From NCBI GenBank assembly GCA_963764165.1, contig CAVXRD010000002.1, positions 1,504,001-1,568,000 of the forward strand: a stretch of 64,000 nucleotides of DNA, given 5' to 3'. The notes under the pieces are model-generated. The model searched no databases and had not been told where the DNA came from. It was given only the letters and a program-made list of their open reading frames with translations. This document shows, piece after piece, positions 9,228 through 57,230 of the stretch. The DNA is from an uncultured Verrucomicrobiae bacterium (GTDB taxonomy: Bacteria; Verrucomicrobiota; Verrucomicrobiia; Limisphaerales; Palsa-1400). Positions within the stretch are counted from its first letter, which is position 1; each line of letters begins with the position of its first letter. Position numbers and translations under genes: made by a program.

Positions 9228-11282
9228 CTAGCGGGCGGTTAGCGCCTCAAAGACAGTTTCCGCCAGCCGGCGCGCATGGAAGGGCTTCTGAATGAGATTG
9301 AACTTTGTGCCTTCGGGGAATTCCTTGGCCAGGCGGGCGGCATCGTAGCCGCTGGTGCAGAGCACCTTGAGACCCGGCTTTTCCTGCTGCAAAATTTTCG
9401 CAAGCTCGGTGCCGGCCATGCCTTCGGGCAGGATTAGGTCCGTCAATAACAAATCAATTTTATTATGCTGGTCCTTCCAAATGGCCAGCGCCTCCTTGGC
9501 GGTGCCGCAGCCAAGCACCTTGTAGCCGTGGCTCTCCAGCACGTAATGAATCAGCTTCAAAAGCGGCCCCTCGTCCTCCACCACCAGAATCGTTTCCGTC
9601 CCGCCGATGACCTTTTGCTCGGACGGGGGCAATTGCAGCGCGCCGCCGCGCGCGTTGGAAGCGGGCAAATATATAAAGAAGGCCGTCCCCTGCCCTACCG
9701 CGCTTTCCACCGTGATCCAGCCCTTGTGCTGTTTGACAATGCCATAGACAGTCGCCAGCCCAAGACCGGTGCCGCGATCCTTTTCCTTCGTCGTAAAAAA
9801 CGGCTCGAATATCCGGCTCAAATGCTCAGGGGCAATCCCGCTGCCAGTGTCACCGAACGTCAAACACACGAATCTTCCGGGCGACGCCTCCGGATTGTGC
9901 TTGGCCTCCTCCGGGCCGACGTCGACGGCTGCAGTCCGTATGCGAAGCCGGCCGCCCCGCGGCATGGCGTCCCGCGAATTGACGGCGAGATTCAAGAGCA
10001 CCTGCTCGATCATGCCAAGGTCGGCCAGAATTGCGGGCAGGCCGGGCGCAAATTCCACCTGCAAGGAAACATCCTCGCCCAAAATGCGACGGAGCATCTT
10101 GGTGATATGATTGACAACCTCGTTGAGGTCGACGACCTGGGCGTTGAACTCGTGCTTGCGGCTGAAGGTCATCAATTGCCGTGTGAGGGCGCCGGCGCGC
10201 TTGCCGGCCTCAATGATTTCCTTGAGGGAGTCGGAGCCTTTGGCGGTGAGCTTTTCGTTGACCACCAGGAGGCTGGCGTGGCCGTTGACAACCGTGAGCA
10301 GGTTGTTGAAATCATGCGCGATGCCGCCGGCCAACTGGCCGATCGACTCCATCTTCTGGGATTGGCGCAGTTGCGCCTCCAGGCTCAAGCGCTCCGTGGC
10401 ATCCACCGCCAGTGACAAATAAATTCTCTGGGGAACGATATGGTGGGAGATGATTTCCATCTCGGACCATTTGCCGCAGCGCGTGCGGTGCCGCCACACC
10501 GAGGAATTCTTTCCCTCCGCCCCCCCGGCGGACAACTTGGCAATAAACGCGGCCAGTTCCTCCGGGGCGGCCAGGTCGCGCATGGTCAGGGCCAGGAATT
10601 CCTGCTTGCTGTAGCCGTAGTGCCGGACCGCGGCATCGTTGACGCTGACGAAAGCCAGGGTGGCGTCGTCATAGGTCAGAATGGGTGTCGGGTTGCTGTC
10701 AAACAAAAGCCGGTAAAGATTCTCCGACATCTGCACCCGCGCGAGGGACTGCTCCAGGGCGGCGGTGCGGGAATGAATCAGCGCCTCGAGATTGGTGAAG
10801 TAGGATTGGGCCTCGCCCGTGACGCGCCATTTTTCAGAGAGCGCGACCGCCATCTGTTTCATTTCGACGTGGCCGAATGGCTTCTCCAGCAGCATCAACC
10901 GGTCGTTGCGCCGCAACTGCCGGGAAAGGTCCCGCAGCATCAGCTCGGAGTGCTCCGCGCAAAGCACGACTTCCAGGTTTGGGTCCGCTTCCCAAAGTCG
11001 GCTGATGATTTGCGCGCCGCCTGGCGCCGAAGTCTTTCCGACGTCGACAAAAACAACAGCATACGGGCGTCCGGAGTCCCTCGCCTCAATAGCCTTCCGC
11101 AAGCCATGCTCTTCGGCAATCGCAATGTCCACCTCAAACGCGCTGGCCGCGCGGGGCGGGGAGGCCGCCTCCGGTTCGCCCGCCTCCGGCACGCTGGGAG
11201 CGGAGAGGATTCTGCAAAAGTCATCCCGACTGGGCTGGTCCCCGCCAATGACCAATATGCGATGCAAGCGATTTTTCTCCAT
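9228..11282 (-). CDS. Hybrid sensor kinase (degenerate REC-PAS-HisKA-HATPase-REC)
   Basis: GGIAHDFNN, EPFFTTK, GTGLGL, C-terminal receiver. Confidence 0.93.
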   Translation of the reverse strand: MEKNRLHRILVIGGDQPSRDDFCRILSAPSVPEAGEPEAASPPRAASAFEVDIAIAEEHGLRKAIEARDSGRPYAVVFVDVGKTSAPGGAQIISRLWEADPNLEVVLCAEHSELMLRDLSRQLRRNDRLMLLEKPFGHVEMKQMAVALSEKWRVTGEAQSYFTNLEALIHSRTAALEQSLARVQMSENLYRLLFDSNPTPILTYDDATLAFVSVNDAAVRHYGYSKQEFLALTMRDLAAPEELAAFIAKLSAGGAEGKNSSVWRHRTRCGKWSEMEIISHHIVPQRIYLSLAVDATERLSLEAQLRQSQKMESIGQLAGGIAHDFNNLLTVVNGHASLLVVNEKLTAKGSDSLKEIIEAGKRAGALTRQLMTFSRKHEFNAQVVDLNEVVNHITKMLRRILGEDVSLQVEFAPGLPAILADLGMIEQVLLNLAVNSRDAMPRGGRLRIRTAAVDVGPEEAKHNPEASPGRFVCLTFGDTGSGIAPEHLSRIFEPFFTTKEKDRGTGLGLATVYGIVKQHKGWITVESAVGQGTAFFIYLPASNARGGALQLPPSEQKVIGGTETILVVEDEGPLLKLIHYVLESHGYKVLGCGTAKEALAIWKDQHNKIDLLLTDLILPEGMAGTELAKILQQEKPGLKVLCTSGYDAARLAKEFPEGTKFNLIQKPFHARRLAETVFEALTAR

Positions 11283-41148: not shown

Positions 41149-42078
41149 TCAGTGGGAGGTTTGCGCCTTGTGATACGTCAGGTTGATCGACCACCAGCAT
41201 TCCTGGAGATCGCAACGGATGGCATTGGCGTTGAGCAGTTCAACGTGGCTGTCGGCGAAAGCGTAATTGGCCTTGTTGTCATGGCGCTGGCAGCCGTATT
41301 GGCCCTCTTGCAAGCGGTTGAAGCCCGGCAAATCCTCCGAGCCCGCGCTGCCGGTGTTGCTGTTCTTGATCCACCAACTGTCGTCGGCCCAATTGCCAGG
41401 CTTCCCGCAGCCGCCATCGCCGTACCAGATCAGTTTGCTTGCGGTGGAAATCTCGGTGGAGCGATGCAGGCCCTCATAATAATCCGGCGTCGGGCGGCCG
41501 AACGGCATGCTGGCGGTTTGCGCGGAGGGATTCGGGTTTCCGTCCACATGAATCCAGTGCGCGCCCGCGACGCCGATGCCGCTCTGGTTCCATTTCTCAT
41601 AATCGCCACCGGCGGCGGACACCATGGGCCCGGCGACGCCAATGCCGGTCTGCGACCAATCCGTGCCCGGGCTCAGGGGAAAGCCGCCATAAGAGGCGTC
41701 GTAGGCGGAAATGCCGTCCGCGTAGACAGCCTCCCGTTCGGCCGGGCAATCGTAAATGTTTTTGCTGTGCGCGATGTATTCCCACAGAATCACCCGGTAG
41801 GTCGTTTCAACCCCGGTCGCGTCAATGGTGGTTTGGAGAGGATTGAGCCAATTGGCATTGTCGAGGGAGTAATTCATCGAGGCCACGGTCAACTCGCGCT
41901 GATTGGATTTGCAAACGGCCGTGCGGCCCGCCTCTTGGGCTTCTCCCAAAACCGGCAGCAGCAACGAGGCGAGAATGGCGATGATGGCGATGACGACGAG
42001 AAGCTCGATCAGAGTAAACCCCCGCATCGGCAAACGGAAAAGCAACGAACCCCTTCCTTTTGTGGGACTGGCCAACAC
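41149..42078 (-). CDS. Prepilin-type N-terminal cleavage/methylation protein with H-X9-DG-like motif
   Basis: [38 protein letters not shown]. Confidence 0.9.
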
Positions 42079-52691: not shown

Positions 52692-52926
52692 ATTCGTGTG
52701 GCTTTAATGTCGTAACTTTCGGATACGGACCGCCAACTGGGATTTTTTCGGGATCCAAATTACGAACCGAGTTTGGATCCGGATAATTTTCGGACCAAGG
52801 CGCGAGTCTCTTCGCCTCAGATCGAGCCCAAGCAAGCCACTCCAATTGTTCCGGCGACGGACCGACCGCCGCACCACCGCGCCAATGTTTCTCCACCACA
52901 TCGACAAAAGCGAGAACGCGTTCGCT
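52630..52926 (-). pseudogene. C-terminal fragment of an unknown protein joined to the truncated TROVE gene
   Basis: RVLAFVDVVEKHW...WLAWARSEAKRLAPW begins at the TROVE break point. Confidence 0.5.
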
Positions 52927-53494
52927 GGGCGAGGCGGAGTAAGTCGCCGTGCGACCAACCGTCGCGCTGCTGATACTTCACCGCCTGGTGCGCGAGATCG
53001 TCGGCATCACGGTAAATGTACCAGTCGCCCACGGCGTTGCGCAGACCACGGCCCCAGCCGCGCATGGCATTCACGTATTCGGCGAAGTGGAACAGGTGCG
53101 TGCCAATGCGGCAGACCTTGTTCAAGTTCGCAAACGCGTGCGCCTTCGCCTGGGCGTCACCGTGCGTGACGGCGAGCGCCAAGCCGAAGATGGCCGAATC
53201 GTTCTTGGGCGCGCGGCCGGCATCACTGATCTCAACGATGCGGTTCGCAGCGCGAACGCCATCCGCCTTGATGCAACGGATAATCGCGTCGTGGTTCTGT
53301 TTCACGAGATCGCGTTCCGCGATGTAATACGTGCCACCTTCGGCGCCGAGGATCAGGAAACGGTCAAGCCGCGTCCAGTCATCCACTTCCCAGGAAAAGC
53401 CGCCGCCGGAGTTGCGAACCTGGGTCGAACCCGGGATCGGCTGCGACTGAGGCGTAATGCGGCGGTTGAACTGACGTGCGTAATTGATAGCCAT
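52927..53494 (-). pseudogene. rsr: Ro60/Rsr TROVE-domain RNA-binding protein, truncated after about 190 aa
   Basis: NSGGGF, RLDRFLILGAEGGTYY, RIGTHLFHF, GWGRGLR, KYQQRDGWSHGDLLRLA; AGGAGG SD; similarity stops abruptly. Confidence 0.9.
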
Positions 53495-54731: not shown

Positions 54732-54872
54732 CGACGGATAAAAAACGAACTGGGAGTTTACGTGCTCTACCGCTGAGCTACTCCGGGTGTTAGCACACGG
54801 CCAACGCCAGAGGCTGGACTCGAACCAGCGACCGCGTCCTTATCAAGGATAACCCAATCCTGCGACCCGTCG
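54732..54872 (-). ncRNA. YrlA-type Y RNA with permuted tRNA-like domain
   Basis: CGACGGGTCGCAG..GGGTTATC, T-arm GCTGG-TTCGAGT-CCAGC, closed acceptor-like stem, D-arm TAGCTCAGCGGTAGAGC, 3' ATCCGTCG. Confidence 0.85.
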
Positions 54873-54894
54873 AAAATGTCGGCGCAAATAATCT

Positions 54895-55007
54895 GACGGA
54901 CAAGGAGCGAGTTGGGTCGTCAGCCAGTTGCCTGACTGCGCGGAAGTCGAATCCGCTCATCCTGCAGAACAGGACTTTACCAGATAACCCAATATCATCG
55001 GCCCGTC
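54895..55007 (-). ncRNA. Y RNA-like gene
   Basis: GACGGGCCGATG..GGGTTATC, T-loop-like GCGGA-TTCGACT-TCCGC, 3' CTTGTCCGTC. Confidence 0.75.
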
Positions 55008-55013
55008 GTAAAT

Positions 55014-55091
55014 TGGACACTCCCGATGGGAATCGAACCCACATTTTCCGACCTAAAGCCGGACGTTCTCTCGCAGTTGAACTACGGGGTG
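55014..55091 (-). tRNA. tRNA-like gene with TTA (ochre suppressor-type) anticodon
   Basis: TCCGG-CTTTAGG-TCGGA, T-loop TTCGATT, bulged acceptor, CCA. Confidence 0.6.
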
Positions 55092-55095
55092 GTCA

Positions 55096-55223
55096 GATGG
55101 GCAAGTGGCGTGATCGAACGGAGGCACTCCATGCCGGGAATCGAACCCGGACCGCCAAGGCTTTCGCCACGGACGGTACACCCTCCTTATTTGTGGAAGA
55201 TAATCGATCAACTTCGGCCCATC
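55096..55223 (-). ncRNA. Y RNA-like gene
   Basis: GATGGGCCGAAG..GATTATC, CCGGG-TTCGATT-CCCGG, 3' CTTGCCCATC. Confidence 0.75.
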
Positions 55224-55227
55224 AAAA

Positions 55228-55303
55228 TGGTCAGGGCGACGGGATTCGCACCCGCACAGTCCGCGTCACAGGCGGAGATGCTCACTATTACATCACGACC
55301 CTG
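55228..55303 (-). tRNA. tRNA-His(GTG), atypical
   Basis: TCCGC-CTGTGAC-GCGGA, CCA. Confidence 0.75.
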
Positions 55304-55307
55304 GAAA

Positions 55308-55383
55308 TGGAGCCCCTGGTCGGACTCGCACCGACGTTTACGAGTTTACGAAACTCGCCCTGTTGCTTCTGAGGCACAGGGGC
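55308..55383 (-). tRNA. tRNA-Thr(CGT)
   Basis: CGAGT-TTCGTAA-ACTCG, GCCCCTG/CAGGGGC, CCA. Confidence 0.85.
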
Positions 55384-55391
55384 TGACAAAA

Positions 55392-55469
55392 TGGTGTCCG
55401 CGGCAGGACTCGCGCCTGCGACCTTCACCTTCGCAAGGTGACGCTCTGATCTAACTGAGCTACGCGGAC
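55392..55469 (-). tRNA. tRNA-Arg(GCG)
   Basis: TCACC-TTGCGAA-GGTGA, GTCCGCG/CGCGGAC, CCA. Confidence 0.85.
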
Positions 55470-55484
55470 AAATTGATTTGAAAA

Positions 55485-55595
55485 TGGCATCCGTGATCGG
55501 ACTTGCACCGAGTGCTTGCGCACGGCGACCAGTCCGGCTTGAAGGGCCAGTCGCTCGAGGGGTGGCCGTGCGCAAGCACCTTTGCATTCACGGAC
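55485..55595 (-). tRNA. tRNA-Glu(TTC) with two hairpin insertions
   Basis: CTGGC-CCTTCAA-GCCGG, GTCCGTG/CACGGAT, CCA. Confidence 0.65.
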
Positions 55596-55675
55596 GAAAT
55601 CCTCCAGGGAAGAGAACGCGACGTCGCCGCTCGCAGGCGGGCCTTAACGTTGTGCGCTCTCCTCTCTGGTAAAAA

Positions 55676-55750
55676 TGGCCCCTGAGGTCGGTATTGCGCC
55701 AACGTCTCTTCGTCTTCAGCGAAGCGCTAATCTGCCTCAGCTACTCAGGG
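55676..55750 (-). tRNA. tRNA-Phe(GAA)
   Basis: CTTCG-CTGAAGA-CGAAG, CCCTGAG/CTCAGGG, CCA. Confidence 0.82.
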
Positions 55751-55789
55751 GTGCTTGCGCACGGCCACCATTGCGCACGATCAAGTTTA

Positions 55790-55864
55790 TGGTCGTCCCG
55801 CACGGTAACGCTCCGCGGTCTTCCGGTTATCAGCCGGGCGCTCTTCTTTTGAGCTACGAGAACG
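55790..55864 (-). tRNA. tRNA-Ile(GAT), atypical
   Basis: CCCGG-CTGATAA-CCGGA, CCA. Confidence 0.75.
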
Positions 55865-55897
55865 TGAAAAGTGATGTCGTGCTCGGCCTTCGCTGAA

Positions 55898-56053
55898 TCA
55901 CGAATCGTTGGTCAATTGAGGTTTAATGCCGAAGCGATTGACCGGCCGAAACACGAGGTTCCACTTCGCAATCGGTCGGATTCGAATGGTTCGGCGCGGC
56001 TTGTAACTTCGCCGGTAGAGAAGGTGGCTCTGGAAACGGTTAACGGGTTTCAT
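55898..56053 (-). CDS. Small basic peptide (51 aa) inside the tRNA array
   Basis: GAAAGGAA SD, MKPVNRF...FRPVNRF repeat. Confidence 0.5.
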   Translation of the reverse strand: MKPVNRFQSHLLYRRSYKPRRTIRIRPIAKWNLVFRPVNRFGIKPQLTNDS

Positions 56054-56079
56054 GGTATTCCTTTCGTTGATGTTGAATT

Positions 56080-56202
56080 TGGCGGAAGGGTCTTGGCAGA
56101 CGGCCACCGGGTAACGCTCCGACCTCCGGTTTGAGCGGATTCTGTTTTCGGGACAGGCGCAGCCACGTGCTCGCGCACGGCCACAATATCTGCTTGCAGT
56201 CC
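56080..56202 (-). tRNA. tRNA-Ser(CGA) with two hairpin insertions, degenerate
   Basis: CTGT-CCCGAAA-ACAG, long variable arm, 3' TCCGCCA. Confidence 0.6.
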
Positions 56203-56398
56203 GCAAAACTGACTTTCAAACGATTTTCTGTCCATTAAGATTTCTGCGTGGCGAAGGGGAAGGGTCCGGCTTCCGAAAGGAAGCTTCCAGAGGCCGCGAG
56301 GCTGACCGAGCCCAGGGACTTGGGCACCGTTTGCGGAAATAGGATCAGGCGCAGACAATACCTTCGTCATAATCGTATCGGGCAAAAAGTTATCGAAT

Positions 56399-56472
56399 TG
56401 GCTGCCAGACTTGGACTCGCACCAAGACAAGCGGCTTAACAGGCCGCCGTGCTACTTTGACACCACCTGGCA
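56399..56472 (-). tRNA. tRNA-Asn(GTT)
   Basis: GCGGC-CTGTTAA-GCCGC, TGCCAGG/TCTGGCA, GCCA. Confidence 0.85.
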
Positions 56473-56479
56473 AATGCAG

Positions 56480-56617
56480 TGGCGCTGCCGGCAGGATTGA
56501 CTTCCCAAGTCCTGCAAGTCAGGTGCCCACATAAACATGTTCGCTATCGCGAACCGCAGTCTCACCTGCATCGTTCCGCTTAGAAGGCGGATGCCTCGTA
56601 TATTCGACCACGGCAGC
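56480..56617 (-). tRNA. tRNA-Arg(TCT) with an insertion of about 62 nt in the T-loop
   Basis: TCCGC-CTTCTAA-GCGGA, GCAGG...CCTGC, GCTGCCG/CGGCAGC, CCA. Confidence 0.7.
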
Positions 56618-56622
56618 AGAAA

Positions 56623-56714
56623 TGGTCGGAATGGCAGGATTTTCACCTGCTTGGCCGTCTGCAAAGACCCTCCCGGTCCCAGGCCGGGCGCTCTTAAGAC
56701 TGAGCTACATTCCG
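56623..56714 (-). tRNA. tRNA-Pro(TGG) with a hairpin insertion in the variable loop
   Basis: CCCGG-CCTGGGA-CCGGG, CGGAATG/CATTCCG, CCA. Confidence 0.78.
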
Positions 56715-56721
56715 TGAAGAA

Positions 56722-56797
56722 TGGCGGACCTGAAGGGAGTTGCACCCTCAACCCTCCCGCAGACAACGGGGCGCTCCGCTGATTGAGCTACGAGTCC
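56722..56797 (-). tRNA. tRNA-Asp(GTC)
   Basis: CCCG-TTGTCTG-CGGG, GCCA end. Confidence 0.8.
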
Positions 56798-56806
56798 GAA
56801 ATGAAA

Positions 56807-56896
56807 TGGTGGGAAACGCTGGTAATGCTCCAGTTCGTCACTTCCAGTTTTGTTTTGCGACACCCGATTTACAGTCGGGCAACTGGATCGCTTCCC
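56807..56896 (-). tRNA. tRNA-Tyr(GTA) lacking a D-arm, with long variable arm
   Basis: CCCGA-CTGTAAA-TCGGG, GGGAAGC/GTTTCCC, CCA. Confidence 0.7.
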
Positions 56897-56904
56897 TTGA
56901 AAAA

Positions 56905-56982
56905 TGGTAGCGGGAGTGGGAGTCAAACCCACCTGAAGAAGTTTATGAGGCTTCTCTCTGTGCGTCGGTCGAGTTTCCCGCA
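56905..56982 (-). tRNA. tRNA-Met(CAT) with 1:72 mismatch (initiator-like)
   Basis: GAAGC-CTCATAA-ACTTC, TGCGGGA/TCCCGCT, ACCA. Confidence 0.72.
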
Positions 56983-56993
56983 ATCAAATAAAA

Positions 56994-57068
56994 TGGTGGA
57001 GTCGGTGGGTAATGCTCCCACATAACCTTGCTTGCAGGGCAAGTGCATTGCTTGTCTGCCACGACCCC
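56994..57068 (-). tRNA. tRNA-Ala(TGC)
   Basis: CTTGC-CCTGCAA-GCAAG, G3:U70 present, CCA. Confidence 0.85.
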
Positions 57069-57075
57069 CGAAGAT

Positions 57076-57147
57076 TGGCAGGCTGCCTCCGTGCTGCCCG
57101 GAGTGAGCTGAGTTTTGGAGACTCGGCTGCGTGCTGACGCTCAGCCT
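57076..57147 (-). tRNA. tRNA-Trp(CCA), atypical
   Basis: GAGT-CTCCAAA-ACTC, AGGCTG/CAGCCT, GCCA. Confidence 0.72.
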
Positions 57148-57156
57148 GTGAAGAAT

Positions 57157-57230
57157 TGGTGCGGCTGCCGGGAGTTGCACCCGGACAATCGGCCTGGCAG
57201 GACGACATTCTGCTGTTAAATCACAGCCGC
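57157..57230 (-). tRNA. tRNA-Gly(GCC), first gene of the array
   Basis: TCGTC-CTGCCAG-GCCGA, GCGGCTG/CAGCCGC, CCA. Confidence 0.8.

Follow-up and report, generated by a model that had tools for sequence, protein, structure and literature searches.

Hairpin inserts in a verrucomicrobial tRNA and Y RNA gene array are probably copies of a dispersed, REP-like palindromic DNA repeat

Introduction

Repetitive extragenic palindromic (REP) sequences of the GTAG superfamily have been described in the Planctomycetes-Verrucomicrobia-Chlamydiae group, with GTGG tags in the verrucomicrobium Opitutus terrae. The families reported have stems of 5-13 bp, form sub-families that differ by complementary stem residues, include many intragenic copies, and have been reported to bind gyrase and other proteins (PMC3733652). 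REP-associated tyrosine transposases (RAYTs) cut single-stranded REPs at CT or CA beside the hairpin; in one REP family the palindrome lies 2 nt from the tag, and a GTGG guide shifts cleavage to CC in vitro (PMC8266576). Here we examine a much smaller hairpin that occurs seven times within an array of tRNA and Y RNA-like genes in DNA of an uncultured Verrucomicrobiae bacterium (assembly GCA_963764165.1, contig CAVXRD010000002.1, positions 1,504,001 to 1,568,000). This 64,000-nt stretch is called the window below, and the hairpin is called the unit. We conclude that the seven hairpins are probably copies of a 19-21-nt palindromic DNA repeat that is dispersed in this verrucomicrobial group, has inserted into loops and spacers of the array, and may well spread as a single-stranded DNA hairpin handled by an HUH/Y1 enzyme.

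Two further systems bear on the comparison. The Rickettsia palindromic elements (RPEs), whose sequences end in a CGTC tag (PMC3733652), occur in the genes for tmRNA and M1 (RNase P) RNA and in frame in protein genes (PMC2229807, citing Ogata et al. 2002). The CGTC-tagged repeats of the NTS/dRS3 type are read as single-stranded DNA by the Ssn GIY-YIG nuclease, whose own gene is flanked by the repeat (PMC11893778). Our literature search found no account of this unit, or of bacterial tRNA or Y RNA genes with REP-type repeats inserted in them, though RNA-gene cases might be among the supplementary REP lists (e.g. Additional file 3 of PMC3733652).

Results

Seven copies of one hairpin within a tRNA and Y RNA gene array

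Read on the strand that places the tag first, the unit consists of (G)GT-GGCC, a 4-bp stem of the form G-Y-N-N, a GNNA loop, and a complementary arm ending in C. An earlier note on this DNA had described seven such hairpins, in both orientations and with compensatory changes in their stems. Every one was found when the plus strand of the window was checked, sense and antisense copies were both seen, and the placements given in that note proved correct. They are as follows.

54787..54805, minus strand: unit 1, in the loop that closes the acceptor-like stem of a YrlA-like RNA; minus strand GTT-GGCC-GTGT-GCTA-ACAC, plus strand GTGT-TAGC-ACAC-GGCCAAC
55512..55530, minus strand: unit 2, in the variable loop of a tRNA-Glu(UUC)-like gene; minus strand GGT-CGCC-GTGC-GCAA-GCAC, plus strand GTGC-TTGC-GCAC-GGCGACC, the tail being GGCG with one mismatch
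55561..55579, plus strand: unit 3, in the D loop of the same tRNA-Glu(UUC)-like gene, antisense to the tRNA; GGT-GGCC-GTGC-GCAA-GCAC, forming an inverted pair with unit 2
55751-55769, minus strand: unit 4, in the 5' leader of tRNA-Phe, abutting the 5' end of the gene
55770-55782, minus strand: a truncated second copy, GATCGTGCGCAAT, beside unit 4
56090..56108, minus strand: unit 5, at the T-stem/acceptor junction of a tRNA-Ser(CGA)-like gene; minus strand GGT-GGCC-GTCT-GCCA-AGAC, plus strand GTCT-TGGC-AGAC
56167..56185, minus strand: unit 6, in the D loop of the same tRNA-Ser(CGA)-like gene; minus strand TGT-GGCC-GTGC-GCGA-GCAC, plus strand GTGC-TCGC-GCAC
56651..56668, plus strand: unit 7, in the variable loop of tRNA-Pro(UGG), antisense to the tRNA; TT-GGCC-GTCT-GCAA-AGAC

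The number of copies, their clustering, and their stem changes all lie far above chance. With at most one mismatch, GTNNTNGCNNACGGCC matched the window 8 times, compared with a mean of 1.85 and a maximum of 6 in 100 shuffles. Seven of the eight matches fell within 54.8-56.7 kb; the eighth, at 41905, bears a mismatch and has no array context. Covariation was then measured in the array loci of this genome and its relatives (158,954 bases), using the pattern TGGCC-G...-G..A-...C with no filter for pairing. Thirty-seven sites matched, 32 of them fully paired and with 8 stem types, as opposed to 2 matches and no fully paired site in the reversed control. The commonest stems were GTGC/GCAC (17 sites), GTCT/AGAC (7), GTGT/ACAC (3), and GCGT/ACGC (2), with one site each for GCCT/AGGC, GTCC/GGAC, and a G·U variant. 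Apart from the G·U variant, these complementary-stem sub-families recur at differing sites.

A flank logo drawn from 116 non-redundant loci (A at -2, 0.50; T at -1, 0.72; C at +1, 0.73; T at +2, 0.48) extended the unit to (a)AT-[19 nt]-C(t). Among the 23 units in relatives' arrays, the majority are preceded by (g)gt and the remainder by tt, at, ct, or gt. A near-match, GGTGGCCGAGCGCAAGGAC, present in many copies in genomes of genus g10, was set aside as coding sequence (…WVAERKD…) of a paralogous protein family. This many-copy family (G018, G043, G013, and others; L042-L051) carries …HPLRVESVAWVAERKDVLSGLFF…, which mimics the unit at 17 of 19 bases and is unrelated to it.

The units are inserts relative to orthologous genes

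The earlier note had proposed alignment with uninterrupted homologous tRNAs, and this identified the units as inserts. The usual change replaces about 3 nt of loop or spacer with a 19-nt unit (GGTGGCC, a 4-bp stem, and the GNNA loop), for a net increase of about 16 nt. No target duplication was seen in the orthologue alignments of the insert sites. A model of insertion at microhomologies failed to fit all sites, as did a fixed unit of exactly 16 nt.

The individual sites differ in how widely the insert is shared. All six orthologues of the YrlA-like RNA have an 8-nt loop in place of unit 1, so the window gains a net 11 nt. At the position of unit 2, eight of nine Glu orthologues have about 3 nt (TAA), and the ninth (L019) has a GTCT/AGAC unit; none of the nine carries a unit in the D loop, where unit 3 adds a net 17 nt. 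Unit 4 and its truncated neighbor together (55751..55782) make up the whole Ile-Phe spacer. Among ten orthologues of that spacer, five have none, the Ile CCA directly abutting Phe, four have unrelated spacers of about 40 nt, and one (L031) has the same unit-bearing spacer; another locus (L034) likewise has a unit in its Ile-Phe spacer. Unit 5 is absent from 12 of 13 Ser orthologues and present, with the loop GCAA, in L018 of the same genus. Unit 6 is absent from 11 of 13, the other two (L013 and L018) having a unit in the Ser D loop in the opposite orientation. All ten Pro orthologues are without unit 7.

Of the relatives' 20 array loci (143 kb), 10 contain the unit, with 23 copies in all. Variable loops are occupied most often, by three units in the sense and three in the antisense orientation; in the relatives, the variable-loop units of Thr, Asn, and Glu have the same sense as the tRNA, and those of Gly and Asp are antisense. 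The relatives' other sites are an unnamed tRNA-like unit, spacers, and units without a counterpart in the window. Because the unit is present in independent assemblies of relatives, in some cases at shared sites and in others elsewhere, the data argue against an assembly artefact.

One relative's array contains a chimera (L019 at about 11030-11100, G019:C158) in which the 5' part of tRNA-Glu is followed by a GTCT/AGAC unit and then by the 3' part of tRNA-Thr. From its sequence, the Glu 3' end, Arg, and the Thr 5' end seem to have been lost through a deletion running from one unit to another.

Dispersal of the unit beyond RNA genes

In a genome-wide search of the kind suggested in the earlier note, the strict unit was confined to the array and to two copies in a duplicated stretch of contig C1. 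When the pattern was relaxed to a fully paired TGGCC-G...-GNNA-...C, the 7.0-Mb genome gave 22 matches, compared with 7 in a reversed-sequence control; 6 of the 22 lie in the 2.6-kb array and 2 in the duplicated mobile-element region of C1. In total this genome has about nine copies, seven of them in the 2.6-kb tRNA/Y RNA array and mostly in variable or D loops. The 20 array loci average about 1 unit per 6 kb, whereas the rest of this genome has roughly 1 per Mb or less.

The duplicated region on C1 consists of a 2.3-kb segment present twice, 7.6 kb apart, at 97.6% identity (G000:C1:200098-200898 and 207706-208506, L041). The duplicate holds a CHC2/Toprim primase of about 970 amino acids, and the unit lies exactly at the junction between the stop of the upstream open reading frame (ORF) and the start of the primase. 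The segment is probably an integrated mobile element.

Within the family, an exact 16-mer of the unit was found at 24 places in 11 of 31 genomes, with one match in the reversed control. Eight of the 24 places are outside arrays, several of them in mobile-element genes. The exact 19-mer was present in at least 122 stretches of public genomes (about 186,000 species genomes scanned), where a uniform-composition estimate gives a chance expectation of about 4. Among the matches listed, the record titles were overwhelmingly Verrucomicrobia subdivision 3, Pedosphaera, or Limisphaerales, and the flanks were highly varied, ranging from intergenic DNA and tandem-repeat regions to other repeats (with some units in the loop of a longer palindrome) and, in a few cases, tRNA-array units. 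Eight further stretches with the exact 19-mer lie in 7 viral contigs. Additional units with compensatory stem variants were present within 400 nt at 15 of 130 sampled 19-mer loci, and five other genomes contained 3, 4, 5, 23, and 24 exact 16-mers. On one contig (G047:C2), eight exact 16-mers in succession, between 1.32 and 3.20 Mb, share one strand, which may reflect a replication-strand bias. The GC skew of the window's own genome is about 0.01 absolute, too weak for placing replichores.

The same unit occurs in ORFs on either strand. In-frame copies are found in a TrwC relaxase and a primase (G002), in a relaxase-type helicase domain, and in a Trypsin_2 peptidase, and one copy adjoins genes for a DUF5906 protein and a terminase-like protein (G007). 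Compared with thiC of this genome, the thiC gene of a subdivision-3 metagenome-assembled genome (MAG; L090) contains the unit as an in-frame insert of 6 codons (+18 nt), and a second, variant unit with a 5-bp stem likewise adds 18 nt (6 codons). A third in-frame insert in the same gene comprises 27 codons.

The earlier note's suggestion that the unit targets structured RNA genes holds only locally. It agrees with this genome and with the richness of relatives' arrays, but across the order only about 8-10 of the 130 sampled loci were tRNA-like units, as estimated by eye. Similarly, that note would have been troubled by a motif equally common in ordinary intergenic DNA; this is not so in this genome but is largely so in related genomes. 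Clustering of ORFs within ±400 nt of the 130 loci revealed no recurrent neighboring protein family; the clusters consisted only of spurious frames or orthologous loci. We also rejected the idea that the unit tends to sit in the loop of a larger hairpin: the shift in flank duplex energy is weak (median -7.7 vs -6.8 kcal/mol, p 0.007), and both sets have an equal share of values at or below -12 kcal/mol.

This distribution raises the alternative that the unit is a DNA site selected by the host, recognized, for example, by a nucleoid protein, gyrase, or a recombinase, maintained by purifying selection, and spread among tRNA units chiefly through gene conversion or recombination rather than transposition. 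The identity of many copies over 16-19 nt in different genera would fit such a site, as would the retention of the unit at orthologous loci of several MAGs (e.g. L059, L110, L140, L153), the Glu/unit/Thr chimera, which fits recombination between two units, and the binding of gyrase and other proteins reported for REPs (PMC3733652). The exact-19-mer search, however, biases the sample toward identical copies, and the variant sub-families indicate a sequence free to change as long as the stem pairs. Moreover, there is no flank homology to drive conversion at the Pro, Asp, Gly, Ser D-loop, and thiC sites, and the in-frame copies in thiC, relaxase, and peptidase genes are hard to read as selected sites. 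On balance we consider a host-selected site unlikely.

Search for a mobilizing enzyme

The genome contains ten matches to Y1_Tnp. We examined six of these loci, together with 20 of 64 in four other unit-bearing genomes, to ±1.5 kb each. A unit was found beside the Y1_Tnp gene at 0 of these 26 loci from five genomes, and a RAYT association of the unit was rejected on that result; a mobilizing enzyme is therefore only inferred. Each of the six loci examined in this genome (L182-L187) has distinct inverted repeats of its own on both sides, and some of these (e.g. in L186) contain GTAG-type hairpins, so that the genome seems, by sequence, to hold several REPtron-like loci with differing REP families.

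The host array and the effect of the units on its genes

The array that hosts the units, and the neighboring features, are as follows.

54740..57230, minus strand: host array of about 20 atypical CCA-ending tRNA-like genes, 2 Y-RNA-like genes, and a small ORF (ARAGORN and Rfam matches)
54758-54837: partial match to a YrlA-like RNA (YrlA, 32.6 bits, under the gathering score)
55091-55225: Y-RNA-like gene (Deinococcus_Y_RNA, 48.8 bits, under the gathering score)
52817..53494, minus strand: ORF with a TROVE (Ro60/Rsr) domain, downstream of the array (PF05731, E 3e-19, profile positions 2-178 of 442)

ARAGORN called nine tRNAs within the array, plus a standard tRNA-Gly at 63.9 kb, and the Rfam tRNA model gave 12 matches in the array (E up to 5). 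Many of the array tRNAs have unusual T loops, as judged from sequence and Rfam alignment. A complete set of ordinary tRNAs is encoded elsewhere in the same genome. Relatives within the family and the order share the array, and their genomes often carry several copies of it.

Four features of the region are recorded for their own sake. The TROVE/Ro60 ORF (52817-53494) encodes 225 amino acids covering the N-terminal part of the profile only, and the gene may be split, frameshifted, or truncated. ARAGORN called a tRNA with anticodon UUA ("tRNA-Stop") at 55019-55091 on the minus strand (Rfam tRNA, 41.7 bits). Between Phe and Glu, a long imperfect hairpin that is not tRNA-like lies at 55594-55675 on the minus strand (CCAGAGAGGAGAGCGC ... 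GCGTTCTCTTCCCTGG). About 180 nt (56215-56398) separate tRNA-Asn from the Ser-like gene and have no counterpart in most relatives, in which Ser follows the Asn CCA by at most about 10 nt.

Several insert-bearing tRNAs score above the Rfam tRNA gathering score: Pro in the window (49.2 bits), Asn of L017 (42.6), and a tRNA at 3979-4066 of L014 (37.0). Infernal modeled the Pro unit as an insert in the variable region. The unit in the YrlA-like RNA enlarges only the closing loop, and that at Phe is in the 5' leader. We infer that the unit is neutral in Pro, in the YrlA loop, and in the Phe leader. In the Glu-like gene, units 2 and 3 are predicted to pair with each other around the anticodon arm, giving a helix of about 16 bp (minimum free energy -53.6 kcal/mol, z -4.3), and neither ARAGORN nor Infernal called this gene. 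The Ser-like gene, with its two units, retains 4 of 7 acceptor pairs compared with 7 of 7 in orthologues, and it looks decayed. The unit is probably damaging both in Glu, where the folding model suggests that the inverted units form a rod, and in Ser.

Class II tRNAs (Leu, Ser, and bacterial Tyr) have a long variable arm. A variable-loop insert resembles this arm in giving a region of about 21 nt, with a 4-bp stem and tetraloop, at the extra-arm position. Unlike the class II arm, it is a dispersed repeat that was inserted recently and in this lineage alone, facing either way, and the tRNAs that bear it belong to class I in all other cases.

These placements suggested a second alternative, in which the unit acts at the RNA level, either as a binding or processing tag (for Ro60/Y RNA quality control or for a nuclease) or as an arm that shields the spare tRNAs from loop-cutting toxins. 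Such a module would account for the seven of about nine copies here that lie in the array, for the strong enrichment in relatives' arrays, and for the variable loop as the commonest site; on one strand the GNNA loop resembles a GNRA tetraloop, and a defence nuclease that cuts the tRNA variable loop has been published (PMC13096335). Orientation tells against it, since variable loops carry three sense and three antisense units and the Ser D loop holds both orientations. Most order-wide copies, among the matches listed, are outside RNA genes, those in ORFs occur on either strand, and two host genes in the window look impaired. An RNA-level module is accordingly quite improbable in our estimate, and the protein-binding or processing tag offered in the earlier note was not borne out: the unit has no orientation preference with respect to transcription and is the same in intergenic DNA and ORFs. 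Because orientation in variable loops is unbiased, we regard the unit as a DNA-level element carried passively in RNA, and it is likely to be passively transcribed.

The units might instead be short intervening sequences, excised from the precursor RNA by, for example, an endonuclease and rejoined by an RtcB-type ligase, so that the mature tRNAs would be normal. They do lie inside conserved tRNA genes, and their removal gives near-canonical lengths. Both orientations at equivalent sites, however, imply that there is no common RNA splice signal, and with about 3 nt of the original loop missing, excision would not restore the ancestral sequence. The unit is present also in DNA outside RNA genes and in frame in ORFs, and no Rfam intron family gave a match at E up to 5. 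Nor does the unit resemble a tRNA intron of the group I or bulge-helix-bulge type, given its two orientations and many positions. We consider excision very improbable.

Comparison with described repeat families

The closest likeness is to the GTAG-superfamily REPs. The unit has an unpaired GT[A/G]G-type tag 5' of a short GC-rich palindrome, the tag being GTGG as in O. terrae (PMC3733652) and GGTGGCC preceding the stem in most copies; the tag also belongs to the 19-mer present in at least 122 public stretches. Its tag and stem are separated by 2 nt, as in some REP families (PMC8266576). It shares with REPs the palindrome and the sub-families that differ by complementary stem residues (32 of 37 array sites fully paired), and it occurs as singles, inverted pairs, clusters, and copies within ORFs. 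A C(T) follows the hairpin at the place where RAYTs cut, and by this analysis the ...CAC-C(T) flank of the unit would be compatible with the CT, CA, and CC sites reported in PMC8266576. The unit differs from these REPs in having copies inside tRNA and Y RNA genes. REPs usually exceed 100 copies per genome and are mainly extragenic; the unit falls well below that number, with many of its copies in RNA genes or ORFs.

The unit behaves like the RPEs described in PMC2229807, as selfish palindromes tolerated in frame in conserved protein genes and inside structured RNA genes. It differs from them in its GTGG rather than CGTC tag, in its phylum, and in its presence in tRNA genes, which are not among the sites reported in that account. 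The shared behavior does not extend to family membership in RPE-1 to RPE-8, from which the unit is set apart by both tag and length (19-21 nt). RPEs are about 100-150 bp long, much longer than the unit.

With NTS/dRS3 repeats the unit shares a short hairpin with oriented non-palindromic flanks. The repeats described in PMC11893778 differ in their CGTC tag, their sequence, and their hundreds of copies; we found no unit-flanked gene, and no search for Ssn was made. The unit is also unlike a miniature inverted-repeat transposable element, which has terminal inverted repeats of 15-30 bp, a length of 70-300 bp, and a target duplication: it is 19-21 nt long, has a single 4-bp palindrome, and replaces about 3 nt.

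Discussion

The absence of the unit from orthologues, its two orientations, its recurring complementary sub-families, and its spread over genomes of the order, phage contigs, and ORFs were all seen directly. Together with the GTAG-type layout, they support the "minimal REP-like mobile unit" of the earlier note. In the mechanism we favor, a repeat with the consensus (a)AT-GGTGGCC-G[YNN]-GNNA-[NNR]C-C(t) would insert in either orientation into loops and spacers of the spare tRNA/Y RNA arrays. It would spread as a single-stranded DNA hairpin handled in trans by an HUH/Y1 (RAYT-type) enzyme, as a selfish REP/RPE-like element, and the visible copies are likely survivors at permissive sites. Insertion into a variable loop would make a class I tRNA class II-like, with a 4-bp extra arm.

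Several results weigh against this mechanism. No unit lies beside a Y1_Tnp gene at the loci examined, and the signal for nesting in larger hairpins is weak. The 4-bp stem is shorter than the 5-13 bp of the families in PMC3733652, and the unit reaches tens of copies at most, about nine here, rather than hundreds. The loss of about 3 nt and gain of 19 nt with no target duplication is a signature not described for REP or for insertion sequences of the IS200/IS605 type. The enrichment in this family's tRNA arrays, about a hundred-fold or more, exceeds what passive tolerance alone would give, because ordinary intergenic DNA should also tolerate inserts. No mobility event was seen directly, and the many 100% identical 19-mer copies in different genera could reflect purifying selection on function. 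We therefore file the unit as REP/RPE-like in its working and not as a proven member of a REPtron, that is, a RAYT gene flanked by its cognate REP, because of the 26 Y1 loci without a unit, the short stem, the low copy number, and the undescribed loss of about 3 nt.

A bolder variant, which we regard as speculative and unlikely, sees the unit as a structure-seeking mini-transposon whose targets are the single-stranded loops formed when tRNA-gene DNA folds, and takes the insert-bearing spare tRNAs to be functional, having passed from class I to class II-like. If so, these arrays would be a living model, in present-day genomes, of the origin of the long variable arm, and the spare tRNAs may also gain, through the extra arm, protection against defence nucleases that cut loops.

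The repeat-insertion mechanism has consequences of its own. Covarying hairpins in RNA genes need not mean function at the RNA level, and repeats this small can hide real tRNA genes from gene finders, as with Glu and Ser, which were missed here. Clean comparison of filled and empty sites, which differ by a loss of about 3 nt and a gain of 19 nt, could show how REP-like elements insert. If the reading is true, the unit would be the smallest REP-type repeat (4-bp stem, about 19 nt) within the literature compared here, and a clear case of a REP-type repeat that has colonized tRNA and Y RNA genes, beyond intergenic DNA and ORFs. For the evolution of tRNA in these bacteria, its insertions would offer a natural route to an extra arm.

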